Positions 8,734-64,000 are shown, counted from the first letter of the stretch. The stretch: 64,000 bases of DNA from a virus (IMGVR_UViG_2585427757_000006); one strand, 5' to 3'. The notes: generated by a model not told the origin, from the letters alone. Program-made: numbers and translations.

Positions 8734-8794
8734 GTGTTTTTCTCTTATCGTTTAGTAACTACATTCTTACATAAATTAAGTAAGCATTTACCTA

Positions 8795-10480
8795 TCATTT
8801 AACGCGTTTGAAAACGTATACGCTGACTGTGATCCCTGTGTCTTCAAACTCGTTGGTAAACGACTTCCCTCTGGCATAAACGTAATTATCCATCGTCATC
8901 CAGTCCAGTATTGGCGCAGTGCCCGGCAATACTGCTACAAGACGCCCGCCGACTTTCAGATGCCCCAGCGCAGCCAGCGTGTGCTCTCTATGACGACCAA
9001 GCGAGTACGGCGGGTTCATAACGATTTTGTCGAACTGATAACCTGCGTTGTCCTCAGACCACTTTATGAAGTCGCAGCAAATCGTGTTCGTATACCCTTT
9101 TCCACGCAGGATATCAGCGAAGAGAGGTGCGATTTCTATGCAGGTAACATCTTCCAGATCGGCGTCAATATAGGCCAGAAGATCCCCACGTCCGGCTTGA
9201 GGCTCCAACAGCTTCTCACCAGGCTTCAATTCAGTGGCTCTTGCAACGTACTCAGCAATCAAGCGTGGGGTAGGGTAGAACTGGTGTGATTTTGTATCCG
9301 GTATTAAACCGGTAGCCACAATCGTATTTAGCGTATGGCCGATGTCATACGGGAACTGCCAGTGCTTTTTCTCCTGCACGCCGCCAATGAAGCTCAGTGT
9401 GCGCTCAAGCTCTTCCACCTGCGACTTCTGGAGAGCTGAATCAGAGAAGTACCATACACCTTTGTCTTTGCTCAATCGCCCGTCACGAAGCGCAGTGCGA
9501 ACCGGCACGGAGATCGTCTTCTGGATTAAACCGAACTGCTTTGGTGCCCGTGTTTTTGGCGCAGTTCGGCATGGCGCGGGGATTGCAGCAGGCATACTGT
9601 AAGCCAGCACCTCATTCAACTTCCAGGCCACGTCAGGATGTATTTCAAAGTGAACGTTGCCGTTCTTGAACATCTTCACGCGCATCAGATTTCCATCGAC
9701 GTTCATCCAGTCACCGGTCTGGCAGTCGTTTGCCCGATACGCAGCTGATAGCACCTCAGCAGTGCGGTTGATGGTAATAAATTCTTTGTGCGCGAAGAAA
9801 TGAAGCAAGACACGCAGATCGTCGATGTAGTCCTCTTTGCGATAGTTCACGCTAACGCTGTCCCGCCAGAAATCAGAAATGCAGTCAGCGATTATCAGCC
9901 GCTCGCTGAAACCATTTGTCTTATTTGTCTTGTGCACAGGACTCAGCGCCTTAAACAAGCCATACACGCGCTCAGAGAGATATTTGTGCCTGTCATTCAG
10001 CAAATTAAGCATCGTGGGTATGACCGTTTCTGCTTTGAACTCCGGTACACCAACGAACTCTTTAACCTTCATCTGGTAGCCGGTTCTGTCAGTTTTGATG
10101 ACTTCCTGTTTGCCCTCTATAAACTGCTCGCGCCACTCATCTCGACGGGAAGCTGGCATGATCAGCAAAACGTTAGTCATGTCCGTGACCTTCCTCCAGT
10201 ACTCGGCCCAAATATTCTGTTTCACCCATTCCAGATCGACTTTATCCAACCAACCTCGATTTAAACGCGAGCGATCTTCATCTGGTCGATGGTTTAGTCT
10301 CAGCAGGCGATTAATCATGTTGTGGCGTTCGTCGCCATAAACGAAGTCGTGTACCTGATACATGAAGGCGATCTCTTTCTCGCACTCGGCCACAATTTCG
10401 TGGATAACGTTCATTTCCTGACGATAATCGATAGCAGTGTTTGAGCTGGCATCGTCGATGATGGAAAGGGCTGTATTCAT
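8795..10480 (-). CDS. N6-adenine DNA methyltransferase with a large N-terminal domain of unknown function (561 aa)
   Basis: C-terminal motif I LEPQAGRGDL and motif IV VMNPPYS. The first ~370 aa carry no recognised motif. Confidence 0.8.
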   Translation of the reverse strand: MNTALSIIDDASSNTAIDYRQEMNVIHEIVAECEKEIAFMYQVHDFVYGDERHNMINRLLRLNHRPDEDRSRLNRGWLDKVDLEWVKQNIWAEYWRKVTDMTNVLLIMPASRRDEWREQFIEGKQEVIKTDRTGYQMKVKEFVGVPEFKAETVIPTMLNLLNDRHKYLSERVYGLFKALSPVHKTNKTNGFSERLIIADCISDFWRDSVSVNYRKEDYIDDLRVLLHFFAHKEFITINRTAEVLSAAYRANDCQTGDWMNVDGNLMRVKMFKNGNVHFEIHPDVAWKLNEVLAYSMPAAIPAPCRTAPKTRAPKQFGLIQKTISVPVRTALRDGRLSKDKGVWYFSDSALQKSQVEELERTLSFIGGVQEKKHWQFPYDIGHTLNTIVATGLIPDTKSHQFYPTPRLIAEYVARATELKPGEKLLEPQAGRGDLLAYIDADLEDVTCIEIAPLFADILRGKGYTNTICCDFIKWSEDNAGYQFDKIVMNPPYSLGRHREHTLAALGHLKVGGRLVAVLPGTAPILDWMTMDNYVYARGKSFTNEFEDTGITVSVYVFKRVK

Positions 10481-10582
10481 AATTACACCATTAAATAATT
10501 TGTTTTCTGATTGGTGTAATTATCGCAAACTTGAAAAGGCATAAAAGCTGCATTCATAGGCGTTACAGCAGATTTAAGGCGT

Positions 10583-10604
10583 AAAAATGGGGGCTGTCGC
10601 CCCC
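10583..10604 (-). terminator. Intrinsic terminator after gene 10622..11188
   Basis: gggggc tgtc gccccc (10589-10604), followed on the minus strand by atttttac. Confidence 0.6.
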
Positions 10605-10621
10605 TGTCGACTGGTGCTGTA

Positions 10622-11188
10622 TTAGAGTGCGTATTGCGTTTTGTGCGGCTGCTTATTCAAGTCATGGCGATGCGTGAGCTCCCGCATCATGTCTTCAAGG
10701 CGACTCTTTGTGTCGTCGAGCTGGTCGGCCATTGCACCTAAAAGCTGGCGAACGGCCATCGGATCGTCGCTGTTTAGTGATGGCATTTTAGAACCTGCTT
10801 TAGAAGACATAAGGTTGATTGCAGACATCAACATCGTTAGAGAGGATTTAAGCCCGGCAATTTCACGATCTTTGCTGGCAATAATCGTCTCACTTTTGTT
10901 ACCGTCATCAGTTTCTTGAGTCTCGCTCACCATATCCAAAGTCGCTTGCAACTTATCAGCTCTCTCTTTTTCAGCAAGGTAATGAACACCGAAATGGTGT
11001 GCCAAAGCTACAATCTGAGTTGGCTCTTCAAAGGTGGAATTAAAATTAAGTATTGTAAACAGTCTCTCAAATATGGAAACGTCTTCTATTCCTCGAAGAA
11101 TGGCTAACATTTTGACCAGTTCATTAGCATCCATTTCTTCGAATAAGGCGTTTTGTTCATCAGCTATTGCTTTGCATTTCTCGCACAT
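10622..11188 (-). CDS. Hypothetical protein (188 aa)
   Basis: Conserved leader aaggaaaacacATG and a family A palindrome upstream (11205-11225). Confidence 0.6.
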   Translation of the reverse strand: MCEKCKAIADEQNALFEEMDANELVKMLAILRGIEDVSIFERLFTILNFNSTFEEPTQIVALAHHFGVHYLAEKERADKLQATLDMVSETQETDDGNKSETIIASKDREIAGLKSSLTMLMSAINLMSSKAGSKMPSLNSDDPMAVRQLLGAMADQLDDTKSRLEDMMRELTHRHDLNKQPHKTQYAL

Positions 11189-11204
11189 GTGTTTTCCTTA
11201 ATGC

Positions 11205-11225
11205 TTAAACAAGTTGTTTTCTTAT
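11205..11225. promoter_or_regulatory. Representative family A palindrome
   Basis: ttaaacaagttgttttcttat, about 17 nt upstream of the ATG at 11188. Confidence 0.5.
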
Positions 11226-11305
11226 TGGTTTTATTGTGATGTGGCATAAAAGGGGAGCAAGCTAAACGTAAAGGTGCAAACTCTCTATTTCGGTCAACGA
11301 AACAC

Positions 11306-11325
11306 AAGGGCCATTTGGCCCTTGT
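11306..11325 (-). terminator. Hairpin after the 52-aa ORF
   Basis: caagggcc attt ggcccttg, 3 nt after the TAA at 11328-11330. Confidence 0.5.
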
Positions 11326-11327
11326 CA

Positions 11328-12193: not shown

Positions 12194-12202
12194 ACAACCG
12201 CC

Positions 12203-12697: not shown

Positions 12698-12845
12698 GTG
12701 GACTCCATCCAGTGTCAGAAAGAGTTGCGGCTGGCGATTGCCAGCCGCTTTTCTCGTTCCATCCTGGAACTGTGTCTTACCGACACATTGTCATCCTGAC
12801 GCCGATAAGATACATGATTTAAAATGATAGGTAAACACTTACTTA

Positions 12846-13436
12846 CTATTTGTTATAAACAAAACCAATATCTTTCTTGTGAGGCATATCTGCTGCTGAA
12901 AAAGCTGCGATCTTCGCGAGTCGATCACATATTTCATTTTCACGATGCCCGGCGTGACCTTTAACCCACTTCCAGCGAACATTATGTCGACTTGCGGCCT
13001 CATCCAGACGCTTCCACAGATCAACATTCTTTACCGGTTTTTTGTCAGAAGTCATCCATCCATTGCGTTTCCACCATTTCATCCACTGTGTCATGCCGTT
13101 TTTCAGATACTGGCTATCAGAGTGCAAAATAACGTTGCATGGATATTTCAAACGCTCCAGCCCGATAAGTGCCCCCATCATCTCCATGCGGTTATTGGTG
13201 GTGCTATGAAAACCATCTGAGAACTCGCGTTCCTCACCACGATACTGGAGAACGATACCGTAACCGCCCGGGCCACCCGGATTTTTAAGGCAAGAGCCAT
13301 CACTAAAGATTTTCACGGTTTTAAGCTGGGGATTGAACTCTACGACAGGCGTTGTGGGATTGGTGCGGGGGGAATTTTTGTTTTTGGCTTTTTTGCGAGT
13401 TTTTGCTTGCGATCGGGCTGGTGTCTTCGTCGTCAT
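12846..13436 (-). CDS. rnhA: Ribonuclease HI with a basic N-terminal extension
   Basis: DGSC..NPG.GG, NNRMEL-like [13 protein letters not shown] and KGHAGH..NE.CD match RNase HI catalytic motifs. Start taken at MTTKTPARS (cat 13434-13436), not the track's 13520. Confidence 0.85.
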
Positions 13437-13534: not shown

Positions 13535-14000
13535 CAGGTTTTTATAAACCTGAACTGAACGAACGAAGTGAGTGAAGTTCACCTCGAACGAAGTGAGAGG
13601 TTGTCTTTTCAGGTAATACTCTCCCAGGGAGGTGAGTATAAAAATCTCTCACCAACCTGGTCGTTTCATAACCTGAAAAGTTATGGTCTAAGTCTACTGC
13701 CAGCTTAGACTTGGGAAGTTATGGATGACAGCACCCCAGAACCGAGATCTTCCCACACTTTATGAAGGGGAGTACTGGATTCAACCTCTCGAAACACCCC
13801 AGACTCGACAATCATAAAGTGACCCTTGTCTCTGCTCACTTTGGTTCCCCCTTCCCCGACACCTAAACGGCACCAGTTCTACGCTGGTAGTGAGCTTTTT
13901 TAAACCTGACGCCAGTGACGCTTACCCCCACCCATCAGGTCGAGTCTCCAGTCTACGACTGGAAACTATCAGATCTTAGCACTTACAATTCACTTTATGA
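13535..14000. other. ORF-free, hairpin-dense segment (candidate structured RNA or cis-element)
   Basis: No ORF of 60 aa or more on either strand. Perfect 10-bp long-range inverted repeats 13605-13614/13671-13680 and 13756-13765/13812-13821, further stems and direct repeats (see findings). Confidence 0.5.
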
Positions 14001-14018
14001 ATAGTTTGTACTTATCTA

Positions 14019-14249
14019 TCATTGTGATTGATTATTTTCTCTACCATGTAGTTGAACATTCAAGGCAAACACCTCATTGATCAACTCACCTAAAAGCTGT
14101 TCAACAAGTTCGCGATGCTCGCCAAGATGCAAGCACTTAATTGCCCATTCGTACAAGTTGAAAGCCTGCTCACGATCTTTCATCATTTCACGAGCCTGGG
14201 CCAGAAAATCGCTCTCTACGAGCGCAACGACATTAGTCGGGTATGACAT
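14019..14249 (-). CDS. Hypothetical protein (76 aa; track start 14273 also possible)
   Basis: SD aagga lies 8 nt upstream of the ATG at 14249. Confidence 0.5.
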   Translation of the reverse strand: MSYPTNVVALVESDFLAQAREMMKDREQAFNLYEWAIKCLHLGEHRELVEQLLGELINEVFALNVQLHGRENNQSQ

Positions 14250-14434
14250 GTTGGTTTCCTTAAAGTGGTTCATAAAATCGATTTTAAAGCGTCTGCGAAG
14301 GGGTTCTAGTGGATTCTGTAGTTATGTTCAGGTCTGGAGTCTCTGATACAAAACAGCCTTCTTCCGTATATTAATAATTAATATGTAGTTATTTATATAT
14401 ACAGAAGCAGGCTAATTACAGACACCAGAACAAA

Positions 14435-15028: not shown

Positions 15029-15211
15029 CTTCTTTCTCGATAGGTAAGTAAATACCTATTTTTGCATTTGATTTTATGTCTGGCAATCAAATAAAACGCG
15101 CCAGAAATGCAAACGAGAAGCTCTCTGGCGCGTTTTTGTGGTGCTGGGTATGTGATTGACTTACCCAGTACTATAAAGCTCTCTATGGGCTTTATTTTAA
15201 GTAGGGGAACG

Positions 15212-18759: not shown

Positions 18760-19890
18760 TCACACCGCCACTGGAACCTTGATCCACGGTAGAGGGGCAT
18801 AGCCAAGAATAAGAATCTCGTCCCATTTGAAATCATCCAGCTCAGACCATTCATTAGGGAATATAACGACCGGATCTGAATGCTCTGGAGCCTGTCGTTG
18901 CATTAGCTCACACACACCTTCCATGTGGTTGTTGTACAAATGCACGTCAAAGCCAAAATGCACAAATGCACCGGCCATGTGACCCGTAATCTTCGCGAGA
19001 AAATGAGTGAGAATGCCATAGCCAGCAATATTGAATGGCATACCAACAAAAGTGTCTACGCTACGCTGTACGAGGCAGGAGTTGAGGATGCGTTTGGGGA
19101 TTCCAAGTTCATCCAGTTCAGCTTCAGTAACACTGCCGTCTATCTCCAGATCGTATAGCATCTTGGTGTAGATAGACTCGTAACCGAGGCGACTGTGTTG
19201 AAGACCAATGTCAGTTGCCATCGTTAAACGGGTTTCAAAATCCAGCTCACGACTCCACAAAGAGAAGACAAAGTGGCAAGGTGGCAGTTTCATATCCTCA
19301 AGCTCGCCTACGTTCCATGCGTTAAGCATGATGCGACGATCGGTAGGGTTCGTGCGCAGTGTATCGACAATACGCTGTAGCTGATCGATTTCACGGGACA
19401 GCACTACGCGATCTTCACTGATACCCAGGTATCCCTCGACTTTGTACCCGCGTTCACGGAAAGTAGCGATCTTGCTCAGATATTCACTATGGCTCACGAT
19501 GCGGGTATCTTCCCATCGACGCCACTGCTTACCGTAAACCGGCCCCAAATCGCCATTCTCATCGGCCCATGCATCCCAAATCTTAACGCCGTTATCCTTG
19601 AGAAATTGGATGTTGCCCGTGCCTTTCAGATACCACTCAAGTTCGACAAGCAGTGGCTTAAGATTTACCGCCTTTCCAGAAATAAGCGGCACAGTCCCAC
19701 CAGTAAGCATGTAGTAAGAGGGAACGTAGCAGGTGCTTAAAGTACCAGTGCCTGTGCGATCATCAGCCTGCACGCCGCTTTTAAGCACCGTCTCAATAAC
19801 TTTTGCATACGATGCGTTTGTTACCTGACCGTTCGTATGCTCACGATTCAAAAGGAGTGACACAAAAACCTCACAAAGATAAGTAACCAC
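18760..19890 (-). CDS. thyA: Thymidylate synthase (ThyA type) with two internal insertions; start uncertain (GTG 19890 or GTG 19863)
   Basis: DRTGTGT, GPVYGKQWR, LPPCH (catalytic Cys), QRSVD and GMPFNIAGY. 376 aa versus ~264 in E. coli as recalled. Confidence 0.9.
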   Translation of the reverse strand: MVTYLCEVFVSLLLNREHTNGQVTNASYAKVIETVLKSGVQADDRTGTGTLSTCYVPSYYMLTGGTVPLISGKAVNLKPLLVELEWYLKGTGNIQFLKDNGVKIWDAWADENGDLGPVYGKQWRRWEDTRIVSHSEYLSKIATFRERGYKVEGYLGISEDRVVLSREIDQLQRIVDTLRTNPTDRRIMLNAWNVGELEDMKLPPCHFVFSLWSRELDFETRLTMATDIGLQHSRLGYESIYTKMLYDLEIDGSVTEAELDELGIPKRILNSCLVQRSVDTFVGMPFNIAGYGILTHFLAKITGHMAGAFVHFGFDVHLYNNHMEGVCELMQRQAPEHSDPVVIFPNEWSELDDFKWDEILILGYAPLPWIKVPVAV

Positions 19891-19940
19891 TTATTCATTG
19901 CGTGAGTTTACATTTATTGAGAGAACAAGACCAGACAGAT

Positions 19941-19970: not shown

Positions 19971-20034
19971 CGAATAGTTGTTTCAGAAATTTAACGCGCC
20001 AGCGCAATATACACAGATAGATAACTACCTACAA

Positions 20035-20904
20035 TTATTTTTTGATCATTCCGTACATTGCTGAGGCTTTAGCTTGCTCAACAAAGGAGGATAAATCGAC
20101 ATCACTATAGGTTGGAGACTTCAGAATCTTTCCATCGGAAATTCGAAAACCGATCATCTTATCGGTGCCATCAGCATGGCGAAATCCCAGGTCAGAAGAG
20201 TCGTATTTGCAGTTGGCCACAGCATGGCGACGCTCTTCGGCATCTGCAGGCCATAATTTTGTCATGTTGGACCGATGAATTTCGCCAACCAGCTCGACGA
20301 CATTGATACCGAGAAAATCAGCCAGTCGATAAGTCATCATGCACGCCACATAGATTTTGTTCATTACACGGCGCAGTTCCTGAATCAGCTCAGAATCCTT
20401 AACAGTCTTCTTCTCAAGTTTATCTGCCAGCTCTTCGAGCATACATGACGCCTCACGAGCTTCCTGAAATGGCATTGCCATATCATCGAAAACAGTGTTA
20501 CCAGGCACAAAAATTGTCTGCATAAAGCGATCAATGCTCTGTTCCTGCGTGTAATAAGTCATGCCGGTAGAAATACCACCTTTGATGGCGACCATCGTAC
20601 CAACACCAACGTATAAAAAGTCGGCCATTGCATCCAGCAGTTGCTCAATATCCCCATTCATTGCGGCTGGAATACCTTCCACTACAGCTTCTTCATGAAT
20701 CAGGCTTGCACGGAGACGAAGCAGCTCTGGTGTCGGCATAACGCGTCTCGGATGCTGGAAGAGTTCATGAAACTGATCGACCATCTTGTAAATACTTTCA
20801 GTGGCTACACCATGGCCTTCATGCAACTCATATGGTTCTGGCTTAAATCCAATGAGTCGATCGGTGGCAAGTTTCAGGTGGTCAGTCAGTTTGGTAAAGT
20901 TCAT
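20035..20904 (-). CDS. All-alpha NTP pyrophosphohydrolase-like (MazG-like) protein, putative (289 aa)
   Basis: LIHEEAVVE...LLDAMADFLYV resembles the EExxE...D motif pair of the MazG/dUTPase-like fold. Recollection-based. Confidence 0.35.
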   Translation of the reverse strand: MNFTKLTDHLKLATDRLIGFKPEPYELHEGHGVATESIYKMVDQFHELFQHPRRVMPTPELLRLRASLIHEEAVVEGIPAAMNGDIEQLLDAMADFLYVGVGTMVAIKGGISTGMTYYTQEQSIDRFMQTIFVPGNTVFDDMAMPFQEAREASCMLEELADKLEKKTVKDSELIQELRRVMNKIYVACMMTYRLADFLGINVVELVGEIHRSNMTKLWPADAEERRHAVANCKYDSSDLGFRHADGTDKMIGFRISDGKILKSPTYSDVDLSSFVEQAKASAMYGMIKK

Positions 20905-24585: not shown

Positions 24586-24619
24586 ATGTTAATAGATAAG
24601 CACTTACCTATCAATGAAA

Positions 24620-29163: not shown

Positions 29164-29417
29164 GTGTTTTTCCTTTGTGGTTATTTTGATACAAATTTTA
29201 AGAGCAATGAGAAGGTAAACAACTATGCATAACGGTATGTTAGGAATGAAACGAGCGTCTTAATATACAAAACTTATAAGTAAGTATATACCTATTTATT
29301 GTGGCGCAACTTTGCTTGTCTGTATGACTAAAAATAAGACAGGATCACTGTAGAACGCTATGAGAGCTATTTTGAGGAGGCGTAGATTCTATCTACGCCA
29401 ATATACGATCTGGAGGG

Positions 29418-32781: not shown

Positions 32782-32820
32782 GATAGGTAAATGCTAACTT
32801 ATATATTTTTGCTGTAAATA

Positions 32821-33096: not shown

Positions 33097-33268
33097 GTGT
33101 TTTCTCCTTGTTGGTAAGTACTTATCTATCTTAATGGACGCTATAAGGCGCACAATCATTGTGTTCAGGCTGGTGGAAAGAACTTCTCCAGCGTGTGGTT
33201 GATAGCCTTATCAATGTGCATCAGGTGCCAGACGACCATATCTTTGCTTCCAATGCCGCGAGTGTAGA

Positions 33269-36994
<3,726 letters not shown>

Positions 36995-37008
36995 AATTGT
37001 AAATTCCC

Positions 37009-38172: not shown

Positions 38173-38181
38173 ATTCGCGTC

Positions 38182-39462: not shown

Positions 39463-41891
39463 TAGGCTTCTCCCTGAACTTCCGCCACTTTCACGCCTAA
39501 TATTTGTGCAATCAAACCATCAGCCTTCTGCTCTAGATTGATAATGTCAGTTGCTACTTCTTCAAGACTACGTAATGGCTTATGCAGATAGAAATACTTA
39601 TTGAAGCTGATTTCATAGCCAATTTTTACCGTATCTAGGTTTATCCATGCTTCATCGACATGAGGCTTCACTTCATCTAGGAAGTACTGGTAAATGCTTT
39701 GCTTTAATGGAACAGATTCTGTATCTCGCAGGTCTGAATTGGTCTCGTAAGTGATATACTCGCCTTTTTTACCGCCTTCTGCTGAAGGAACGGGGTAATA
39801 ACCAAAATCTGGCAAGTCAGCGACTTCACACTCATAGCGCTCCAGCAGGTCGTTTAATTTATCACCCGTTAATTTAACTACCTTTTTAACCACTTTCTTG
39901 GCGGTTTCGTCATACCAGCTCACCGCGTGAAGAATGGCATTTTTCTCAGGTGCTGAAAGCTTAATAGCATGGGCTTTTAGCGATTTATCAACTTGGGTTT
40001 TAAAGCTATTGAAGTCATCAAATTCAATGCTACCGATGTCAGCCATCAGCGTTTGTGCAGTTTCAAGCAATGCTTTTAGCGCCAGCCAGTGTTTCACATC
40101 AAGCAGTTTGGCCTTAGCCTTAGCATTGAGACTGATGTCGTTATCTTCACACCAAGAAAGAATGTCTTTCTCGATGGATTTTAAGAAGCTCTTTTTCTGA
40201 TCTGACCCGTAGCCAGTTTTTTCGTAAACACGTTCGCCGTGCTCTGCGTACACGTACTCCATCACTTCACTAAGTTGCTTATCAAAACGCAGTGGGGCTA
40301 TGGCATCTTGAGTAAACTTGGCTTTGCGGCGATCTGGGCGCTCGATAGTGACTTTGTAGTAGCCAAAATCGTCATTGCTGAATACCTTACTGGCGATGCC
40401 AACAGGATCATTGTTTGCATCCAGTGCTCTTTCAACATCCTTACACGCGAGGTAAGTATCGGTAATTTCCGTGATGTGCTCAGGCGCAAATTCGCAGTTT
40501 TTGTTACCTAAGTTCTTGCGCAACTTACGGTAGAGCAAGCTGGCATCAATTAATTGCACCTTACCTTTACGCGCCTCAGGTTTATTGTTGCTCAACACCC
40601 AAATGTAAGTGGTAATGCCAGTGTTATAGAACAGGTTATTAGGTAACTGAACGATGGCATCTAGCATGTCGTTTTCAATGATGAAGCGACGAATATTACT
40701 TTCACCACCGCCCGCATCTCCGGTAAAGAGCGATGAGCCGTTATGAACAGAGGCAATCCGGCTGCCTAATGGACTTACGCTCGGATCTTTCATCTTGTTG
40801 ACCATCTCCATTAAGAAAAGCAGCTGGCCATCACTCGAACGTGGCGTGGCATCCACCACTTCGAGATTTCCCCAATAGTCTTTCAGGCTAACCTTAAAAC
40901 GCGGGTCAATCACATCACTGCCGTCTTTAATGTACTTCTGTTCAGACGCCCAACTCTTACCGTATGGCGGGGTAGACAACATAAAGTCAAAGCGTGAAGC
41001 CGCAAACTCGTCGGTAGACAAGGTTGAGCCTACCTTGATGTTCTCAGGGTTGTTACCTTTGATCATCATGTCCGATTTACAAATCGCGTAGGTCTCGTCA
41101 TTGATCTCTTTGCCGTAAAGGTAAATATCTCGGCTGTCGTTCGGGTATTTCTCTTCAATGAAGTTTTGAGATTCAGTGAGCATACCACCGCTACCACACG
41201 CAGGGTCGTAAACGGTCATGGTCAATGGTAGCTGCTCTTTCACTGGGTCAAAAACCAAGTGTGTCATCAGCTCAATCACTTCCCTAGGTGTAAAGTGCTC
41301 ACCGGCTTCTTCGTTATTCTCCTCGTTGAACTTACGGATCAACTCTTCGAACACGTACCCCATACCCAGGTTAGTAAGGGCTGGCATCTTGTTGCCATCT
41401 GGGTCTTCGATCGTTTCATGAGTTAAGTTGATGTAAGGGGAAACAAACTTTTCGACGACATCAAGAAGGACTTGCTTTGAGGCCATGTGACGAATTTGCG
41501 ACTTGAGGTTAAAGCATTCAATGATTTCTTTAACATTATCGCTAAAGCTAAGCAGGTACTCTTCAAAGTTGGCGAGTAATATCTGTTGGTTATTCGTTGC
41601 GGTGTTGAACAGGGATTTCAGGGTCCATTTAGATGTATTGTAAAAAACATAACCACTAGCCGCCTTCAATGGTTCATCATCAAGCTCCGTGGCTTGCATC
41701 TCTTCTTTTTGGAACTTGACCTCTTCAAGCACGGCTTCTTTGGTGGGTTCAAGTAACGTATCTAAACGTCGTAATACCACCATAGGTAAAATCACATCGC
41801 GGTACTTACCGCGAACGTACACATCACGTAAACAGTCGTCGGCAATGTTCCATATAAATGAGATGAGCTTGTTATGTACACTATGATCCAT
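39462..41891 (-). CDS. hsdM: Type I restriction enzyme M subunit (809 aa from MDHSVHNKL)
   Basis: DPACGSGGML (motif I), a motif IV variant STPPYG (canonical NPPF/NPPY), and a long C-terminal extension. ATG at 41891 has SD aggaaa; the track start at 41927 is TTG. Confidence 0.9.
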   Translation of the reverse strand: MDHSVHNKLISFIWNIADDCLRDVYVRGKYRDVILPMVVLRRLDTLLEPTKEAVLEEVKFQKEEMQATELDDEPLKAASGYVFYNTSKWTLKSLFNTATNNQQILLANFEEYLLSFSDNVKEIIECFNLKSQIRHMASKQVLLDVVEKFVSPYINLTHETIEDPDGNKMPALTNLGMGYVFEELIRKFNEENNEEAGEHFTPREVIELMTHLVFDPVKEQLPLTMTVYDPACGSGGMLTESQNFIEEKYPNDSRDIYLYGKEINDETYAICKSDMMIKGNNPENIKVGSTLSTDEFAASRFDFMLSTPPYGKSWASEQKYIKDGSDVIDPRFKVSLKDYWGNLEVVDATPRSSDGQLLFLMEMVNKMKDPSVSPLGSRIASVHNGSSLFTGDAGGGESNIRRFIIENDMLDAIVQLPNNLFYNTGITTYIWVLSNNKPEARKGKVQLIDASLLYRKLRKNLGNKNCEFAPEHITEITDTYLACKDVERALDANNDPVGIASKVFSNDDFGYYKVTIERPDRRKAKFTQDAIAPLRFDKQLSEVMEYVYAEHGERVYEKTGYGSDQKKSFLKSIEKDILSWCEDNDISLNAKAKAKLLDVKHWLALKALLETAQTLMADIGSIEFDDFNSFKTQVDKSLKAHAIKLSAPEKNAILHAVSWYDETAKKVVKKVVKLTGDKLNDLLERYECEVADLPDFGYYPVPSAEGGKKGEYITYETNSDLRDTESVPLKQSIYQYFLDEVKPHVDEAWINLDTVKIGYEISFNKYFYLHKPLRSLEEVATDIINLEQKADGLIAQILGVKVAEVQGEA

Positions 41892-42052
41892 TTTCTTTTC
41901 CTGTTCAGTGTTGGTTGCACCCCACAAAGTTGCTGCAACGGCTTCACTATAAATTTAAAATTCTGTTCTTTCTGTAACGCCTAAATGGCCTCTACATCGT
42001 TCGATTAACTTGTTCTACCCGGCGCTAGATTTAAGTTTATGACACCATAAAG

Positions 42053-42519: not shown

Positions 42520-42609
42520 GTGTTTTCCTATGTGGCTATTGTGTGTAGATGGTGAGTAAGTGTTTATATATTTTCAAGGTATAAAGGCGTCCATTCGGAC
42601 GCCTGAAAA

Positions 42610-45985: not shown

Positions 45986-46102
45986 GTGTTTCTCCTTGTT
46001 GTGATTTGGCCGATGGCGCTATGCGCGTTGGGCTTTCGTTCATTCGTGGCTCTTTCGAGCTGTTAAATGATAGATCAGTACTTACTTATTATCTATCAAA
46101 AA

Positions 46103-52389: not shown

Positions 52390-52484
52390 GCGTTTTTCCT
52401 TTGTTCTCTAATGAGCGTTCAACTTCTTATATAAATATATCATCATCTATCGTAAGTAGTTACTTATCGTTAAGGCTGTTTTGT

Positions 52485-54593
52485 TCACTTTAAAATGATA
52501 CGAGATAGTTCAGTAACTACAGATGAACCAAGACTATCAACGCTCGTTACCAGGGCATGATTTGAGTAAAATCTCTCCGGTGCGTCAGTCATGATGCCAA
52601 TTGCCATCAAATCAATATCAGTCTGCGTTTCAATTTGCTTCGCAACTGAACGCAAATGAGCGTCAAAACCTCTCCCAACAGCCCACGGCGCGCCATCACT
52701 CAGAACAAGCATGATCTTCCTGTCCTCCATGCGACCGGAAAATAACGATGCAAGGCTGGCTATGCTTTCACCATCCACGTTATTAAGAAGTGGGAATGTG
52801 TAGCCTACGCACCCCATACGTGAGCGAACTTCGCGAGAATTTACCTTTTCATTCCAATTTTTGATGATAGGTAGCATTAAAGATTCAAAGCGAGAGAACT
52901 CATACTTGACAGCCTTAAGTTCTCCTGCCGCCATATGACTACCAAATGTAGTGAAGCCGGTGATAATGTTGGGAACATTTATTCGATCAAGGGCATCGGC
53001 GATGGTATATGCACTTGCAAGAGCCAGTTTAATCGTTATACCACTCATTGAACCTGATAAATCAATCACTTGTTGAACACAGGCGTTAACGGCTTTAGAT
53101 TCTTCTTTTTTACGAAACACGCGAGCATCATTCATTGCTAATCTGTAGATACTAGAACCATGAATGCGCCCCCGACGCTGGCCCGGTATAAACTGAACTC
53201 TGTTTCTGCTTGCTATTGCTCGCTCCAGGTCTTTTGCCAGCGTCGACGAAACACCTGACGAAAGATGCTTTTCAATATATTTGTCGAAGAGCTGGTTGCC
53301 TTCAGGAACGATGCGATAGCGGCTGATTGGATATCCTCCCAAATCAATATCGGAGAATGTTTTAATAAGCCGTTTGATATGGGCTTCTGCCTGATCAATG
53401 GAGCCGATGAAGTCGTATGAGCGATTGTATGGCCTGTATTCGCTTTTCGAGCTTTCTGTTAACTCGCTTTTAATCGTTTCGGATAGCGCATCTTCTGTCA
53501 TGCCTCCGACTTCATCTTCCATGCTATCCAACTCCTCTAAAGCCTCTTCCAGACTCATTTTTGACGGAGTTGGGATATCTGAAGAGCCGTCTTCTGTCGT
53601 TTTTCTTTTTTCGTGGTCAGCGGTTAATGATTCTGACGCCGCGTTATCAGAAGCATCAGAATCTGATACCTCTTTATCATTTTCTGTATCATCGAATATT
53701 GTTTCTGATGATTCAGAATTATCTGAATCATCACTGTCGTTATTATCATGTTTGTGCTTACTATGTGATTCTGATTTGATAGATTTGTGGTTATCTAACA
53801 CTGAGGGTGTCTCATGATCTTCGTTGTCTTCACTGTTTTCTCCAGAGGCATCCGTCTGGTCAGCGTCTGAAGGATCGGAAGTTTTTCCCGGAGCTGACTC
53901 CTTACCTTTGCTTTCACTTTCAGTGTCTTTGAGGATCTTAGCTATGGTCGCAGCCACCTTTACACAATCCTCGGTGCAAGACATGTTACGCACGGCCACA
54001 TCGATACCATGTTCTTTTAATAATGAAATTGGTTTCTCAATGACAGGCCAATATTCATCCATGAAATCTACGAACGGTGCTTGGCCATCCCAGGCTCTTA
54101 CAACCGGACAGAGAAAGAAGTTTAGAAAAAGCGCGCGCTGATCTTTGCCACAATAAGCAATAGCCTCTGAAGCCTTTGGTTTAAAGACTTTTTCGATTAT
54201 AAGGCGCTGAGTTGCCATCAGATTACGTCTTGTTCCGTTAAAGACCTGACCCATTTTTCGCTCGATGAACACGTCTTCTAAGGCATTCCATAGCGACCAG
54301 GAAGGAACGCGTCCTTTTTCTCTCATTTTGTTGGACACACGAATATCGGTAAACAAAATGTGAGCAACCTCATGATCGAGAAATCCGCGCACAGCATTCA
54401 TCAATGCCGGTGTTGCGTTATCCGGGATTGATGGGATGTTTACGAGAATTGGCTCTCCATCATCGTTATAGCGTACATAAGCGTCGTCCCCTCGTTCTGC
54501 AACAGGGATGTTTTTACCTGAAAGGAGAGCGACTACTCGTTTTACACTGTCACGGAAGTCCTGAACCTCTTTGATGGAACGTTTTTTAGACAT
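52485..54593 (-). CDS. CobT-like protein with a C-terminal vWA domain and a long acidic linker (702 aa)
   Basis: MIDAS motif VIDLSGSMSG. Central ~120 aa is D/E/S-rich (DSDDSDNSESSETIFDDTENDKEVSDSDASD). Confidence 0.8.
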   Translation of the reverse strand: MSKKRSIKEVQDFRDSVKRVVALLSGKNIPVAERGDDAYVRYNDDGEPILVNIPSIPDNATPALMNAVRGFLDHEVAHILFTDIRVSNKMREKGRVPSWSLWNALEDVFIERKMGQVFNGTRRNLMATQRLIIEKVFKPKASEAIAYCGKDQRALFLNFFLCPVVRAWDGQAPFVDFMDEYWPVIEKPISLLKEHGIDVAVRNMSCTEDCVKVAATIAKILKDTESESKGKESAPGKTSDPSDADQTDASGENSEDNEDHETPSVLDNHKSIKSESHSKHKHDNNDSDDSDNSESSETIFDDTENDKEVSDSDASDNAASESLTADHEKRKTTEDGSSDIPTPSKMSLEEALEELDSMEDEVGGMTEDALSETIKSELTESSKSEYRPYNRSYDFIGSIDQAEAHIKRLIKTFSDIDLGGYPISRYRIVPEGNQLFDKYIEKHLSSGVSSTLAKDLERAIASRNRVQFIPGQRRGRIHGSSIYRLAMNDARVFRKKEESKAVNACVQQVIDLSGSMSGITIKLALASAYTIADALDRINVPNIITGFTTFGSHMAAGELKAVKYEFSRFESLMLPIIKNWNEKVNSREVRSRMGCVGYTFPLLNNVDGESIASLASLFSGRMEDRKIMLVLSDGAPWAVGRGFDAHLRSVAKQIETQTDIDLMAIGIMTDAPERFYSNHALVTSVDSLGSSVVTELSRIILK

Positions 54594-54691
54594 GGCTAAT
54601 CCTTTGTTATGAAAACAAATTATTTACTAGTGTGTTTAATGTAGCACTGCGCGAACAGGGAACTAAGCCATTCGCGCAGGGAGAAGAGGGG

Positions 54692-54904
54692 TTAACAGAT
54701 TCTGACGGCTAAAGACCCGGAGCCGATATTGAGAAGCGTGAAGCGTTTGTTGTTAAGTTCGAATATAAAGCCAGTTGTGTCATTCACACCAACCTGAATC
54801 TGCTCATTCGGTAGATCGGTGAGGATGTCAGCTACACACTCATCAGCTAATTTCTGTACGTGTCCGATCTCAAGAGCGATTAGGCTGGAAATAGTGGTGT
54901 TCAT
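54692..54904 (-). CDS. Hypothetical protein (70 aa)
   Basis: ORF only. Confidence 0.4.
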   Translation of the reverse strand: MNTTISSLIALEIGHVQKLADECVADILTDLPNEQIQVGVNDTTGFIFELNNKRFTLLNIGSGSLAVRIC

Positions 54905-55154
54905 TCAATCAATCCATTCTAACTTATACTATGGTAAGGAATACTACTAAAATTTATATCAATACTGAATACATTCATATCATATGCAAGTTAATTTTCT
55001 TACCTGTTTTGGGCTAATTTTTCTCCGTGCAATGGCCTTTAACCGGTCTTTTAAGTGTCTATCGAAAAAATGATAATAGCTTTACAACCCTAACCTTTGA
55101 TGTAATATCGGTAAGCACTTACCAGAGAGAATTGAACGCGCAAAGGTTGTAACA

Positions 55155-55541
55155 ATGTCTGACAACAAGATTGAATTTATAGAAAGTCGCTATGCTGCTT
55201 TTATCGCAGGGCTGATTGAATCCTCACCTATGAGTCAGGCCCAAATAGCCAGACTTATTGGTTATAAAAATGCCAACAACCTTTCTTTAATTAAAAGTGG
55301 CAAAATTCCTTTGCCTATCGATAAGGTTCGTCCGTTGGCGCTGGCGCTGGGTATTGAGCCAAGTCGTCTTATGATGATGGTGCTGGAAGAACGCCAACCT
55401 GAACTCGCAGCATTTTTATACAAAGAAGGCACCGCTCCTCTTAACGAGGACGAAAAACAGGTTCTTGCTGCATATAACGAGCGATTCGGTAAAGAGAAAG
55501 GCGCATCACAAAAGGTTGTTGAGGCTATAAAGTCTCTATGA
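55155..55541 (+). CDS. XRE-type helix-turn-helix regulator (128 aa)
   Basis: MSQAQIARLIGYKNANNLSLIKSG fits an HTH. Converges on and overlaps the integrase gene end by 6 nt. Confidence 0.7.
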   Translation: MSDNKIEFIESRYAAFIAGLIESSPMSQAQIARLIGYKNANNLSLIKSGKIPLPIDKVRPLALALGIEPSRLMMMVLEERQPELAAFLYKEGTAPLNEDEKQVLAAYNERFGKEKGASQKVVEAIKSL

Positions 55542-57900: not shown

Positions 57901-58073
57901 AACTTAACAAATACCTTTATAAATATTGATTCGAACATATCAGACTATACTACAAACAGATTTTTTTGATAAGTATGTAGTAACTTATTGATTGACTAGT
58001 AAACAATTGAAGTGATTACGACAATAGATTACAGTAAGGATTGCCTTGAAATGTACATTTTATAGAGGTTTTA

Positions 58074-58982
58074 ATGATTGGTAAGTTGTCTGATTCTTTG
58101 ATTGAAAATAAATACAACGAATTTAGAGAAGAAATATCTTTACTTTTTGACTATTTAAATCAGATAAATGATACAACAAAGAAAAATATAAAACGTCTTC
58201 TTAAAGAAGTGGAGTATGCACAAAATCCAGATACTATTATTAATATTAATGAAACTATTAAGATTAAGTGTGGCACAACGTTAGCTCGCCATTTATGTTC
58301 AAACCCATATACAGGTTCAACATTAGAGATAGGTAACAGCGCCATTGATTTAGAAGAAAAGATAAGATTGTGTAATACTTTGAAAAATAAACAATATCAG
58401 TGGGTTATTACTGAAGCCTATGAGTTACTGGAAGACTATATTGAGGCAATATATGTCTATACTGTATGTGTTCGAAATGATTTATGGTCCTCAAGTGATT
58501 TTGGTAAGGTTGAAGATGATGAAATTGGGAAAAGGGAAGTTTATTACAGATTATTAAAAGCAAAAAGTAACCCATCGAAAAAAATAACTAAAATTTTCAG
58601 AAATAAAATACCTGGCTTCAAAGAGATAGAAACAAACAACAAGATTGGCAAAAACTATCGCTTTAACATCAAGCTAATTGAACTACTAAGACATACAATA
58701 GTACACAATAGTGGACGATTCAATGATACAGAAAAATTTATAAATAAGGTTTTAGATGAATCTGAAATAAACGGTAAGAAAAGAGTTATTGGAGAAAGAG
58801 CTGTTAGAAGTTACATTACTAAAGTGCAAGAAGATGATATTGTGATGCTCTTAGAAAGACCATCTGAAATTTTAGGTTCTTTTGGTGGGTATTTTAACAG
58901 AGCAAAATTTTTACTAAGTGATATTTTAGAATACTCACTAATCATTAAAGAAGAACTAAAATCATATCTAGGCAATCATTAA
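58074..58982 (+). CDS. Low-GC hypothetical protein with a HEPN-type Rx4H motif (302 aa)
   Basis: SD agagg at 58064-58068. LIELLRHTIVHNSGRF gives R-HTIV-H. Composition (by eye below ~30% GC) is much lower than the neighbours. Confidence 0.6.
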   Translation: MIGKLSDSLIENKYNEFREEISLLFDYLNQINDTTKKNIKRLLKEVEYAQNPDTIININETIKIKCGTTLARHLCSNPYTGSTLEIGNSAIDLEEKIRLCNTLKNKQYQWVITEAYELLEDYIEAIYVYTVCVRNDLWSSSDFGKVEDDEIGKREVYYRLLKAKSNPSKKITKIFRNKIPGFKEIETNNKIGKNYRFNIKLIELLRHTIVHNSGRFNDTEKFINKVLDESEINGKKRVIGERAVRSYITKVQEDDIVMLLERPSEILGSFGGYFNRAKFLLSDILEYSLIIKEELKSYLGNH

Positions 58983-59160: not shown

Positions 59161-59247
59161 TGGCGGAGAGTAATGGAATCGAACCATCATCGCTTGCGCA
59201 ATGGGACGGTTTTCAAGACCGCTTGAGCACCATGCTCCCTACTCTCC
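59161..59247 (-). tRNA. tRNA-Ser (anticodon UGA), class II, CCA encoded
   Basis: Hand fold: acceptor ggagagt/actctcc, anticodon arm gcggt-cttgaaa-accgt, variable arm with a gcaa tetraloop, T arm gatgg-ttcgatt-ccatt. Confidence 0.85.
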
Positions 59248-59249
59248 GG

Positions 59250-59399
59250 CCGTTGTGGTGGCCGGTACTGAATCTCCGGCATACGGTGCAGCCAATTAGG
59301 ACTACGGACGATCACCGCTCGCGAAAGGGAAGATTTGCGGCCGCATTTCCCTAACATCCAAGAAAGCTATCGCATCAGTCTGCGAATCCACCACAACGG
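59250..59399. other. 150-nt segment closed by a 12-bp perfect stem between tRNA-Ser and tRNA-Thr (candidate small RNA)
   Basis: ccgttgtggtgg 59250-59261 pairs with ccaccacaacgg 59388-59399. Internal hairpin agggaa..gcggccgc..ttccct. Confidence 0.3.
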
Positions 59400-59471
59400 T
59401 AAGATCACTACCTTTCGACCAGTCATTGTGCACATGAACGACGATTAACCGTAATGATCTTATCGTTGTAT

Positions 59472-59547
59472 TGGTGCCGGTTAGCGGACTCGAACCGCTG
59501 ACATCCTGCTTACAAGGCAGGCGCTCTACCAACTGAGCTAAACCGGC
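59472..59547 (-). tRNA. tRNA-Thr (anticodon UGU), CCA encoded
   Basis: Canonical cloverleaf: gccggtt ta gctc agttggta gagc g cctgc cttgtaa gcagg atgtc agcgg ttcgagt ccgct aaccggc a cca. Confidence 0.92.
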
Positions 59548-59551
59548 AATT

Positions 59552-59638
59552 TGGTGGGGAGTGATGGAGTCGAACCACCCGAGTCGCAATGACAGTAGAT
59601 TTACAGTCTACCCCGCTGCCCCTACGGACTAACTCCCC
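59552..59638 (-). tRNA. tRNA-Tyr (anticodon GUA), class II, CCA encoded
   Basis: Acceptor ggggagt/actcccc, anticodon arm gtaga-ctgtaaa-tctac, variable stem gtc/gac, T arm ggtgg-ttcgact-ccatc. The D arm is slightly non-canonical. Confidence 0.8.
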
Positions 59639-59643
59639 TAAAT

Positions 59644-59718
59644 TGGCGATGGTGGGTGGATTCGAACCACCGACCAGTTGGTTAACAGCCAACTGCTCTA
59701 CCGCTGAGCTACACCATC
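59644..59718 (-). tRNA. tRNA-Asn (anticodon GUU), CCA encoded
   Basis: Canonical cloverleaf: gatggtg ta gctc agcggta gagc a gttgg ctgttaa ccaac tggtc ggtgg ttcgaat ccacc caccatc g cca. Confidence 0.92.
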
Positions 59719-60439: not shown

Positions 60440-60461
60440 GATAAGTAAGTAAATACTTATC
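60440..60461. promoter_or_regulatory. Representative family B palindrome
   Basis: gataagta agtaaa tacttatc. Confidence 0.5.
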
Positions 60462-60470
60462 AATATGTTT

Positions 60471-62604: not shown

Positions 62605-63083
62605 TGTTGTTTTACCTCCATATGTTGATCGATTTGCTCATGTGTTTCTTTTGTTGTTTCTTCAAGCAACGCCGCATACACGTCAGTGATCGCTGTTTGT
62701 GATGTGGTGCTCTTCTTAACCATGCTATTAATCGTTACACTGTCACGTTTTCGTTTTAAAGTTCTGGCTTGTTTATTCCGTTCTTCAACCTCCTTAATGA
62801 GCGCGGTCATATCTTCGAAATACAGAGATTCTCCTTTACGAATCTCTTCAACCATCATTTTTAACGCCTTGCATTTGCCTGCTTTGATAGCGGTTGCGCA
62901 CGACTGGAATGAAGTTCGAGGAAGACGGTTTTCTTTGAAGGCAAGAATGGTGTGCTGGCAAACGGAGTAGCTGCAATATGCCGACTCACCGTTTATCTTT
63001 ACTTCCTCACAACGAAGTGAATAACCATTATTTCCTGAAATAGAGGGGATTTTTGACAAATCAGCTTTCACAATTACCGCCAA
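62601..63083 (-). CDS. Hypothetical protein (160 aa, TTG start in track)
   Basis: ORF with a 4-nt overlap onto the ligase gene. Cys-rich N-terminal half. Confidence 0.5.
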   Translation of the reverse strand: MAVIVKADLSKIPSISGNNGYSLRCEEVKINGESAYCSYSVCQHTILAFKENRLPRTSFQSCATAIKAGKCKALKMMVEEIRKGESLYFEDMTALIKEVEERNKQARTLKRKRDSVTINSMVKKSTTSQTAITDVYAALLEETTKETHEQIDQHMEVKQQ

Positions 63084-63138
63084 AAATAATCTTGTGCTTA
63101 CCTATCATTATTTGCGTAAAAAACGACACACTGAGAGC

Positions 63139-63915
63139 TTACCAACTTCCCCAGCTAATCATCTTGCGCTGATCGCTTTCTAAGCGATAGGGGACAAGAA
63201 GCTCTGTGACATGATTGGTGGCGTATGATTTAGCCTCTTGCTCTATCATCGGTAATTCGTTAGCAATCCTGACCATCTTCCCAGCAAACTCCGCCATTAC
63301 GCCATCACATGCCTTCCCAGCATCAATAACGATATGCACCAGATCCAACTGGCTTTTGCACATGTCGCAAAGAGACGCATACTCACTCTCTCTGATTACA
63401 TTTACGGCATCATTGGCCCCTTTATTAAGCAAGACTTCCAACAGGTTTGTCGGGGTAACGAAATCTGCTTTCAGAGATAATGTCTTTTCACCACTTATCG
63501 AACGCAAGTACTCTTCGTAGTTATTCTTCATCAAACCGCTGCTGCGCATTGCTAGAACTGCTTCTTGAATGGCCGCTTCAATAGTTTCGTCGTTTGAAAG
63601 ACAAAAAACGGTATTTGTGTAGATCACTCTGCCATCAAGCCATGCTCCAACCTGCACTTTAAGACTGAGCGGGTTTTCTTTGCTAATAAAAACAACTAAT
63701 GCAGAACGCCGTGCACAAGAAGGTTCGCCCCATACGTGTAACTCAACTTTCAGATAAGGCAACCCTGGTAGCGGGATCTCGTCCATACGAGCAGCGATAT
63801 GATTCATTGCTGTATTGACGGCCTTTCCAATGATGTCTAGTCGACTGCCCTCGCTGATTTCTAAACCTGTTTTATCAATGATGTCACAGGCCAATTTCTG
63901 AATTTCGTCTTTCAT
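63139..63915 (-). CDS. Hypothetical protein (258 aa)
   Basis: Long ORF, SD ggag upstream, family B palindrome at 63958-63977. Confidence 0.6.
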   Translation of the reverse strand: MKDEIQKLACDIIDKTGLEISEGSRLDIIGKAVNTAMNHIAARMDEIPLPGLPYLKVELHVWGEPSCARRSALVVFISKENPLSLKVQVGAWLDGRVIYTNTVFCLSNDETIEAAIQEAVLAMRSSGLMKNNYEEYLRSISGEKTLSLKADFVTPTNLLEVLLNKGANDAVNVIRESEYASLCDMCKSQLDLVHIVIDAGKACDGVMAEFAGKMVRIANELPMIEQEAKSYATNHVTELLVPYRLESDQRKMISWGSW

Positions 63916-64000
63916 ACCAACTCCTAGCTAACAGATGAAAGTATTCTTACAAAAAACTAAGTATGTATCTACTTATCATTTTAGGCGCAATAGTTCCCTA

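Follow-up and report, generated by a model that had tools for sequence, protein, structure and literature searches.

The question raised by this locus is what a short inverted repeat, scattered between the genes of a virus, is there to do. The window, i.e. the whole 64,000-nucleotide (nt) stretch of IMGVR_UViG_2585427757_000006 analysed here, was identified by sequence comparison as part of an Escherichia coli SSU5-like phage-plasmid. A first-pass annotation had listed 17 copies of an intergenic palindrome, family B, in it. We found that family B is a symmetric DNA-level element, strongly enriched and conserved in position, the centre of which changes in concert from one lineage of these elements to the next. 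Judged from its sequence, it would be a new case of operators scattered over the genome for the master regulator of a temperate phage, and a candidate binder can be proposed. We give about even chances to the reading that the copies are operators of one dimeric phage-plasmid regulator, most probably the XRE-type immunity repressor encoded at 55155-55541, which would silence the lytic modules.

All 17 copies were present within a few nt of where they had been placed, and a single register holds them: a 22-bp palindrome in which GATARGTAAGT is followed directly by ACTTACYTATC (the 22-mer starts are the first coordinates in Table 1). In this register GATARGTA and TACYTATC are always 6 nt apart, and the spacing of 4 to 8 nt described earlier was an artefact of alignment. 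The strict pattern as originally written matched the window once (0 expected), so that the 22-bp register and a position weight matrix (PWM) were required. With a symmetrised PWM the 17 copies scored 12.8-27.7 bits, and three weaker candidates, at 14376, 42551 and 53778, were added. Agreement with the consensus at 16 or more of the 22 positions was found at 17 places in the window versus 0.3 expected from 50 second-order Markov simulations. The arms alone (TAnGTA-N6-TACnTA, at most one mismatch) matched 21-28 times per related genome, versus 0.6-3 expected.

The relatives allowed the distribution to be followed over whole genomes. With Escherichia phage CMS-2020a and Cyrano (pLF82, strain LF82) the window shares 97-99% identity; the figure, in nucleotides, is about 78-81% for Salmonella phage SSU5 and about 77% for phage-plasmids of Klebsiella. 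Whole genomes of ~108 kb carry 22-30 B copies each, almost all in intergenic gaps of lytic modules. In Cyrano, the PWM scan returned 24 strong sites and ~31 in total; 22 of the 24 strong ones were intergenic, although intergenic sequence makes up 13% of the genome (p ~ 9e-18). Virion-module sites lay between terminase and portal genes, downstream of the capsid gene, among the tail genes and between tail fibre and holin genes. Copies were limited to the lytic modules (genes 2-91) plus one upstream of a ParB-like gene, and the scan found none around toxin-antitoxin, parA, repA and hicAB genes or in the 85-105 kb region; these copy-free modules (toxin-antitoxin, parA, repA, hicAB) are the ones expressed in lysogeny. 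At least 20 of the 24 Cyrano sites had orthologues in SSU5 and/or Klebsiella pJN2-26, at ~77-81% nucleotide identity, and in 80 IMG/VR relatives the terminase-portal, capsid and tail sites were kept while their flanks had diverged. Enrichment and positional conservation had been named by the first-pass annotation as the points on which the motif would stand or fall; it was both enriched and conserved in place.

The further claim that copies sit at nearly every operon boundary held for the boundaries and failed for the coverage, since copies occupy 22 of the 78 Cyrano gaps of at least 25 bp. Published RNA sequencing (RNA-seq) of strain LF82 (PMC9928086, supplementary table; prophage background 9.8) provided the transcript level. 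In the partly inducing macrophage 6-h sample, B gaps were transcript boundaries, with a median |Δlog2| of 1.81 versus 0.74 for other adjacent pairs (p 0.006). The signal rose by 2 or more at 5 of 20 B gaps versus 1 of 51 other pairs (p 0.006) and fell by at least 1.7 at 6 of the 20. These steps support the operon-boundary idea at the transcript level, and a subset of B gaps holds putative promoters that fire under stress. The largest upward step in Cyrano was at g81, whose homologue lies downstream of the site at 13999. Contact with upstream stop codons was likewise borne out: 5 of the 17 window copies overlap the stop of a minus-strand gene, and 6 more lie 7-32 nt past one.

The centre of the motif switches between lineages, as seen in a comparison made with the invariant arms only (TAnGTA-N6-TACnTA). 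Positions 9/14 were A·T, with G/C at 10/13, in Cyrano (E. coli), SSU5 (Salmonella) and the Klebsiella elements (lineage 1), G·C in Cronobacter sp. JZ38 (NZ_CP017663) and related IMG/VR contigs (lineage 2), and T·A in a Providencia plasmid and the lineage-3 contigs. Immunity regions of lineage 2 were obtained through PLSDB; lineage 3 had no close plasmid, and the more distant Providencia plasmid stands in for it. Orthologous B positions were retained across the lineages. A copy in the 3' end of the portal gene was kept in all of them and followed the lineage-specific motif, while the peptide encoded over it varied (NKSVLTY, NRLSTTY or SKYLNTY), which shows that selection acts on the DNA. Concerted change at ~25 dispersed sites argues that one trans factor changed its specificity, and implies that such a co-evolving factor probably binds family B. 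Joint change of this kind is known from the repressors (L5 gp71, Bxb1 gp69) and stoperators of Cluster A mycobacteriophages, in which variants of the motif and of the repressor go together and delimit immunity groups (PMC6550527, PMC9283540). As with stoperators, 20-30 sites are dispersed, mostly off promoters, in short intergenic spaces (here 22-30 per ~108 kb, 22 of 24 intergenic), a conserved, putatively autoregulatory site lies upstream of the repressor gene, and some Cluster A members are extrachromosomal parABS prophages (PMC6550527, PMC9283540). Stoperators, however, are 13-bp, asymmetric, monomer-bound and oriented with transcription, whereas the 22-bp family B site is palindromic and shows no orientation bias, and its candidate binder, being XRE-type, would be expected to be a dimer.

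Whether the motif is read as DNA or as RNA was examined by pairing and symmetry tests on 80 distinct B sites from four genomes, oriented with transcription. Among symmetric positions, G·U-type combinations (59) were not in excess over A·C-type ones (64; binomial p 0.72). No covariation was seen at the R/Y pair 5/18 (Fisher p 0.68, 0.07, 0.64), and no orientation bias either, upstream and downstream halves being equally conserved (Wilcoxon p 0.07, 0.81, 0.43). The consensus would fold into a hairpin of -12.2 kcal/mol, whereas the 17 actual window copies gave weak predicted RNA hairpins (mean -3.3 kcal/mol sense and -2.6 antisense, three sites at 0). No Rfam family matched B. From pairing, symmetry, weak folds and the missing Rfam match it follows that family B is a symmetric double-stranded-DNA element, neither terminator nor structured RNA, in agreement with the preference of the first-pass annotation for a DNA-level protein site. 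The symmetry fits a dimer, not an RNA.

Its parallel suggestion of AU-rich hairpins followed by U-runs did not survive, given the weak folds and a T-run (at least 5 T in 8 nt) after only 3 of the 17 copies. Several copies instead show the order stop codon, motif and then a separate GC-rich hairpin with T-run (24585-24564 and 19966-19948 in the window); in Cyrano, SSU5 and Klebsiella the sites that follow the capsid gene and the tail J gene show it too. An intrinsic terminator was rejected on account of the weak AU-rich stems, the rarity of T-runs and the true GC-rich terminators lying separately downstream, and a structured RNA on account of the missing G·U excess, covariation and Rfam match. 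More broadly, the AU-rich hairpin might work in RNA as a terminator, processing site, stabiliser or protein-binding element near ribosome-binding sites, which we consider highly improbable. The strong fold of the consensus would agree with such a role, as would the location of copies in transcribed spacers, often between stop codon and Shine-Dalgarno, a few series of orthologous copies with seemingly compensatory changes (AGTAG...CTACT past the capsid gene, for example) and the presence of a FljA homologue on the element. FljA is the Salmonella phase-1 flagellin repressor, and the type member works on mRNA. Besides the results given above, the real copies fold no better in sense than in antisense, many have one good half only, and the FljA homologue was not detected in lineage-3 loci (~10 kb each side of the terminase gene), where the motif is present. 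The same absence, together with expression at about twice background in lysogens, led us to reject the FljA-like regulator as the B binder. In Cyrano its gene lies beyond the window (OV696614, 100780-101301; full length, PF03614, E 1e-80), and it may be a moron acting on host flagellin.

Which protein could then bind as a dimer? The 128-aa product of 55155-55541 had a weak Pfam hit, HTH_19, and also matched phrog_8 ('transcriptional regulator'). An XRE fold was confirmed: the AlphaFold model (mean predicted local distance difference test score, pLDDT, 75) resembles C-proteins, HigA and the N-terminal domain of the 434 repressor. The gene and the integrase gene are arranged tail-to-tail and overlap, and an open reading frame (ORF) for 70 aa runs divergently from it, which gives a CI/Cro-like layout. 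Contigs of SSU5-like phage-plasmid size were the only ones on which homologues turned up (55 clusters). Among the predicted DNA-binding proteins examined, it alone was clearly expressed in LF82 lysogens (96 versus the background of 9.8); g37, g123 and the ParB-like g119 and g120 were at background, and the FljA-like g114 reached 18. Within lineage 1 the helix segment GYKNxNNLSLIKSGKIPLP was identical at 17-18 of 18 positions while overall identity went down to 56-63%; 12 of 18 positions were shared in lineage 2 (50% overall) and 9 of 18 in Providencia (37% overall). The three motif variants run parallel to three versions of this recognition helix, a correspondence that involves only three lineages and is confounded with overall divergence. 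A B core, GGTAAGCACTTACC, with weakened arms lies over the predicted repressor promoter, in what would be the classical position for negative autoregulation. The arrangement has been kept as a whole in other E. coli elements and in those of Cronobacter and Citrobacter, and lineage 2 and Providencia carry B-like sites, in another placement, in the repressor-proximal intergenic region.

The divergent 70-aa ORF was rejected as an essential activator because it is absent from SSU5, a viable phage. In the gap between it and the cobT-like gene (~54646-54682), we noted a conserved hairpin, CTGCGCGAA...TTCGCGCAG, followed by a site of a second palindrome family, A; in other genera the hairpin reads CTGTACGAACAG...CTGTTCGTACAG, a change that looks compensatory. 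In the LF82 macrophage RNA-seq the 70-aa ORF was up to 10.8 log2 and the next gene 5.9, a drop at this place that suggests an attenuator.

ParB-like proteins deserve consideration as binders, since a palindrome of ~16-22 bp in many copies could form dispersed centromeres or global operators for one of the two ParB-like proteins (KorB/OB-like or N15 SopB-like), or else mark a point of structure or packaging. In the IncP plasmid RK2 the ParB is KorB, which is expressed in the plasmid state and forms a global regulon with KorA; its operator OB is a 13-bp palindrome present in 12 copies, promoter-proximal and promoter-distal. The occurrence here of family A beside family B recalls the KorB/KorA pair. 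One B copy, moreover, lies 16 nt upstream of the ParB-like g119, which diverges faster between lineages (73%, then 42-46%) than g120-g122 (70-90%). Unlike KorB, however, the ParB-like genes were silent in LF82 lysogens (g119 5.0 and g120 9.5 versus background 9.8; PMC9928086), so that their products would not act in the plasmid state, and they were rejected as the lysogeny binder on this ground. In addition, parA, which has a small partner gene of its own, is ~30 kb distant, and B copies avoid the maintenance modules and track lytic transcription units. We therefore hold this reading to be very unlikely. As a separate observation, in Cyrano, beyond the window, parA and its small partner were expressed in lysogens while g119-120 were silent, so that the ParB-like pair probably does not provide the plasmid-state partition proteins.

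The operator reading may be put as follows. In the plasmid-prophage state the repressor would occupy some 20-30 palindromes across genes for DNA metabolism, replication, virion and lysis. Some palindromes would take the place of a -35 element, 3-9 nt upstream of -10-like boxes (TGTAAGAAT, TATAAGAT), and others would cover the -10/+1 region; in either position initiation would be blocked, at promoters that would be extended-10-dependent or otherwise without a -35. Sites past stop codons, before terminators or by ribosome-binding sites may serve as extra roadblocks or cooperative anchors, stoperator-like. The weakened core over the repressor's own start point would provide negative autoregulation, and the lineage-specific centre would set immunity specificity. 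Consistent with silencing, genes past B gaps were at background in LF82 lysogens grown in LB medium, with the exceptions discussed below.

All promoters considered here were predicted from sequence, and the geometry between B and promoter is heterogeneous. The palindrome covers predicted core elements at 55106 (-10 edge and +1) and 15039 (-10), other copies lie at -40 to -19 before extended -10 boxes, and those at 33109, 32782, 63085 and 15039 abut a Shine-Dalgarno sequence or ATG. For minus-strand genes of the window the distance to the next start codon ranged from 0 to ~160 nt. An extended -10 (TGnNAnnnT) followed 3-5 nt downstream in the sense direction at 3-5 of ~27 copies per genome, where ~0.7-1 would be expected and ~1 was seen on the opposite side; such boxes were conserved in the SSU5, Klebsiella and Providencia elements. 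A sigma70 promoter of fixed geometry was rejected, as consensus promoters were not enriched and the -10-like hexamer at offset -4 is the palindrome itself (TATC + AT), on both sides.

This promoter landscape bears on the main rival to the operator model, in which the sign of regulation is reversed. Family B would then be the site of a lytic-phase activator that replaces the -35 of promoters used by host RNA polymerase, as P1 Lpa boxes, T4 MotA boxes and class II activator sites do, and through the copy on the repressor promoter this protein would also turn off repressor synthesis. We regard this as a possibility to be taken seriously, albeit on the unlikely side. It would account for the -35-less -10-like boxes (TGTAAGAAT, TATAAGAT, TAGAAT) found 3-9 or 15-19 nt downstream of B and conserved in SSU5, Klebsiella and Providencia, and for palindrome centres at about -30 or about -41 from the inferred starts, one helical turn apart. 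The upward RNA steps, the lack of enriched consensus promoters and the lytic growth of SSU5, which has kept the sites without a repressor, would also agree with it. The B centre AAGTACTT nearly equals the -22 box AAGTNACTT of the P1 late promoters, and some copies precede -10-only promoters as Lpa boxes do. Unlike the 9-bp Lpa box, however, this is an 8-bp box inside a 22-bp palindrome, lies 11-26 nt instead of a fixed 4 nt from the -10 and also occurs before DNA-metabolism genes. The P1 Lpa system was rejected because its spacing rule is unmet and no Lpa homologue was found in five related genomes (tblastn, phmmer; best E 0.29). A candidate activator was not identified, the 70-aa ORF being missing from SSU5. 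Nor does an activator sit easily with a motif that is symmetric to transcription, with a fixed-offset extended -10 at so few sites, or with copies placed against Shine-Dalgarno or ATG or before a terminator, where a downstream promoter could not be accommodated; it would also be unusual for DNA-metabolism and virion genes to share one activator.

Several of our data nevertheless weigh against the repressor-operator reading. Consensus sigma70 promoters numbered 18 versus 28 expected (8-28 kb), and the promoters near B mostly have no -35, which is the pattern of activator-dependent promoters. Three regions downstream of B were above background in lysogens, namely g34 (44), g81 (117) and the tRNA region (151). 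The changes in the helix segment could simply mirror overall divergence. The site on the repressor promoter is the weakest member of the family and is placed differently in lineage 2. Finally, SSU5 has no integrase-repressor block yet has kept high-scoring B sites; close relatives of SSU5 carry the block, so its loss may be recent. In the SSU5 record (NC_018843) the missing block, comprising integrase, XRE repressor and 70-aa ORF, corresponds to ~41.8-42.8 kb, where related plasmids carry it, and its absence fits the isolation of SSU5 as a lytic phage.

Two known repressor systems are instructive for the operator reading. P1 C1 also belongs to an enterobacterial plasmid prophage, has many operators over ~95-108 kb and regulates distinct lytic operons, among them those with ssb, replication and methylase genes (AF234172 annotation). 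The C1 operators differ from B, however, in being 17-bp and asymmetric (ATTGCTCTAATAAATTT), in lying on canonical sigma70 promoters and in not occurring in the virion operons, where Lpa is used; B and the C1 operators showed no similarity in sequence. SPBRE of the large temperate phage SPbeta was first recognised in silico as a repeat in many intergenic regions and was later found to be the site of the master repressor MrpR by chromatin affinity purification sequencing (ChAP-seq) and electrophoretic mobility shift assay (EMSA; PMC10516654). It is a direct precedent for a route from motif to function such as that of family B, although SPBRE is 15 bp long with ~10 sites, MrpR has a tyrosine-recombinase fold and the host is Gram-positive.

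Acquired DNA offered another view of the motif. The first-pass annotation had proposed that family B marks the native backbone, with no copy in either of two inserts. Both inserts were confirmed, a type I restriction-modification (R-M) island (hsdR-DUF4268-hsdS-hsdM, 33977-41927) and MetRS with an ApbC/Mrp ATPase (4059-7350), and the PWM scan agreed that they are free of copies. With the positions kept in relatives, this upholds the proposal. The backbone includes nrdAB, thyX, DHFR, sbcCD, ruvC, recA-like, gp32-like SSB, uvsY, PolIII alpha subunit, ligase and other genes, nearly all on the minus strand of the window, the Cyrano record being antiparallel to it. A P1 identity for the window was dropped, as its sequence matches SSU5-like elements and not P1. 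The mosaic nature of the element, with inserts that differ between relatives, and the position of copies at gene boundaries might also point to a recombination or mosaic-boundary sequence for module exchange, like the PeSL cassettes of T4-type phages. The junctions of the R-M island and of the MetRS/ApbC insert, however, do not coincide with B sites, which excluded them as such, and the MetRS/ApbC insert is flanked by family A. A boundary sequence would moreover leave the lineage-wide centre switch and the autoregulatory placement unexplained, and we consider it extremely improbable.

Family A has the palindrome GAAAACAANTTGTTTTC, with 17-mers starting in the window at 2594, 3909, 3960, 7583, 10491, 11205, 11934, 22154, 48574 and 54611; those at 3909/3960 and 7583 are the ones that flank the MetRS/ApbC insert. 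TTAAACAC or TTACAC lies 4-6 nt upstream of family A copies and start codons 9-30 nt downstream. Family A occupies 12 of the 78 Cyrano gaps of at least 25 bp, and no gap has both A and B (Fisher p 0.013).

Table 1. Family B sites, predicted promoter elements and candidate regulatory genes in the window (17 originally listed copies and three added ones)
Feature	Position	Strand	Score (bits)	Context
B site	8775-8796		24.4	overlaps stop of DUF4942 gene (g90 homologue); next start 41 nt away
Extended -10, TGTAAGAAT	8771-8763	-		3 nt past B site 8775
B site	12826-12847		24.1	overlaps stop of RNase H-like gene (g82 homologue)
B site	13999-14020		20.1	overlaps stop of g80 homologue; 159 nt upstream of g81 homologue
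Added copy, degenerate B-like core	14376-14397		18.2	centre of ~57-bp inverted repeat 14356-14412
B site	15039-15060		26.4	adenine-methyltransferase start 10 nt downstream
Predicted sigma70-like promoter, TTGCCA-17-AAAAAT	15086-15058	-		-10 overlapped by B site 15039
B site	19878-19899		20.8	thyX start 14 nt downstream
B site	20016-20037		13.7	overlaps stop of MazG-like gene; then GC-rich terminator 19966-19948 (minus)
B site	24591-24612		27.7	7 nt past RuvC-like stop; directly followed by terminator-like hairpin 24585-24564, then nrdA
B site	29275-29296		25.4	between ASCH gene and sbcD
B site	32782-32803		23.8	adjoins annotated start of g60 homologue; RNA step in Cyrano gap +3.65 log2 (up)
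B site	33109-33130		22.8	directly followed by Shine-Dalgarno AGGAG; ATG 12 nt downstream
Added copy, weak	42551-42572		14.2	orthologue of Cyrano 57445 site, downstream of recA-like gene
B site	46069-46090		25.0	12 nt past uvsY-like stop; upstream of gp32-like SSB gene
B site	52447-52468		15.2	16 nt past cobT-like stop; TATATAAGAAG ~15 nt downstream (minus)
Added copy	53778-53799		16.4	within cobT-like gene; orthologue of Cyrano 43931
70-aa ORF	54692-54904	-		phrog_2627; heads leftward lytic operon, in the place a Cro-like gene would occupy
Predicted sigma70 repressor promoter	55081-55108	+		read from sequence: TTTACA (55081-55086), 16 nt, TAATAT (55103-55108)
B core site, GGTAAGCACTTACC	55106-55127		12.8	arms diverged; on -10 edge and predicted start point of repressor promoter
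Candidate binding protein	55155-55541	+		128-aa XRE-type helix-turn-helix, CYRAN_45 homologue
B site	57968-57989		24.3	divergent region between glutaredoxin gene (minus) and g43 homologue (plus)
B site	60440-60461		26.9	best palindrome of the window; 9 nt past g39 stop; upstream of tRNA cluster
Extended -10, GTATAAGAT	60433-60425	-		follows B site 60440
B site	63085-63106		16.6	one strong half only; g35 homologue start 1 nt on
B site	63956-63977		19.9	upstream of g34 homologue; RNA step in Cyrano gap +2.4 log2 (up)
TGTAAGAAT	63951-63943	-		4 nt past B site 63956

Some neighbours of these sites merit mention in their own right. The g43 homologue (58074-58982, plus strand), just past the site at 57968, was expressed in LF82 ~720-fold over the prophage background and adjoins a -35-like hexamer, TTGACT. 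Downstream of the site at 60440, which has a TATAAGAT box, lies a tRNA cluster (59161-59718, minus strand; tRNA-Ser(tga), Thr(tgt), Tyr(gta) and Asn(gtt)) in a region expressed in lysogens; its identity to phage tRNA genes is ~93% for P7 and D6 and 78% for N4-like phages. The inverted repeat at 14356-14412 consists of GCCTTCTTCCGTATAT, the degenerate B-like core TATAAATAACTACATATTAATT and ATATACAGAAGCAGGC. Cyrano and Klebsiella pJN2-26 have the same element 3-4 times in their genomes, and it may be a bidirectional promoter or origin-like. A translation-initiation context, (A)GGAAAAACACATG, is common to at least 10 genes (e.g. at 8733, 33096 and 52389 in the window).

Taken further, the data would allow for the SSU5 supercluster as a whole to be silenced by a palindromic stoperator-like network, in which one small XRE repressor would act at ~25 sites, by taking the place of -35 elements, covering start points or simply obstructing RNA polymerase, the 9/14 switch (A·T, G·C, T·A) would be an immunity code that keeps the lineages apart, and family A in other gaps would complete a two-operator global regulon. 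This extension is speculative and we think it rather unlikely to hold in full, but if true, it would be the first such network described outside actinobacteriophages. Full-text literature searches returned no description of lysogeny regulation in SSU5-like elements or of the family B motif. These phage-plasmids are widespread and clinically common. PLSDB searches with segments of SSU5-like elements matched 513 and 823 records, from Klebsiella, E. coli, Enterobacter, Salmonella and Yersinia, and members of the SSU5 group have been reported as carriers of resistance genes. Family B would offer a first handle on how they are silenced, and the operator family together with a named candidate repressor is a direct entry point for experiment. 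The palindrome centre may permit a sequence-based sorting into probable immunity or incompatibility-like groups. All in all, family B provides a way of telling native backbone from acquired cargo, and should help in predicting where transcription units and promoters lie in genomes of this kind, which measure 100-110 kb.

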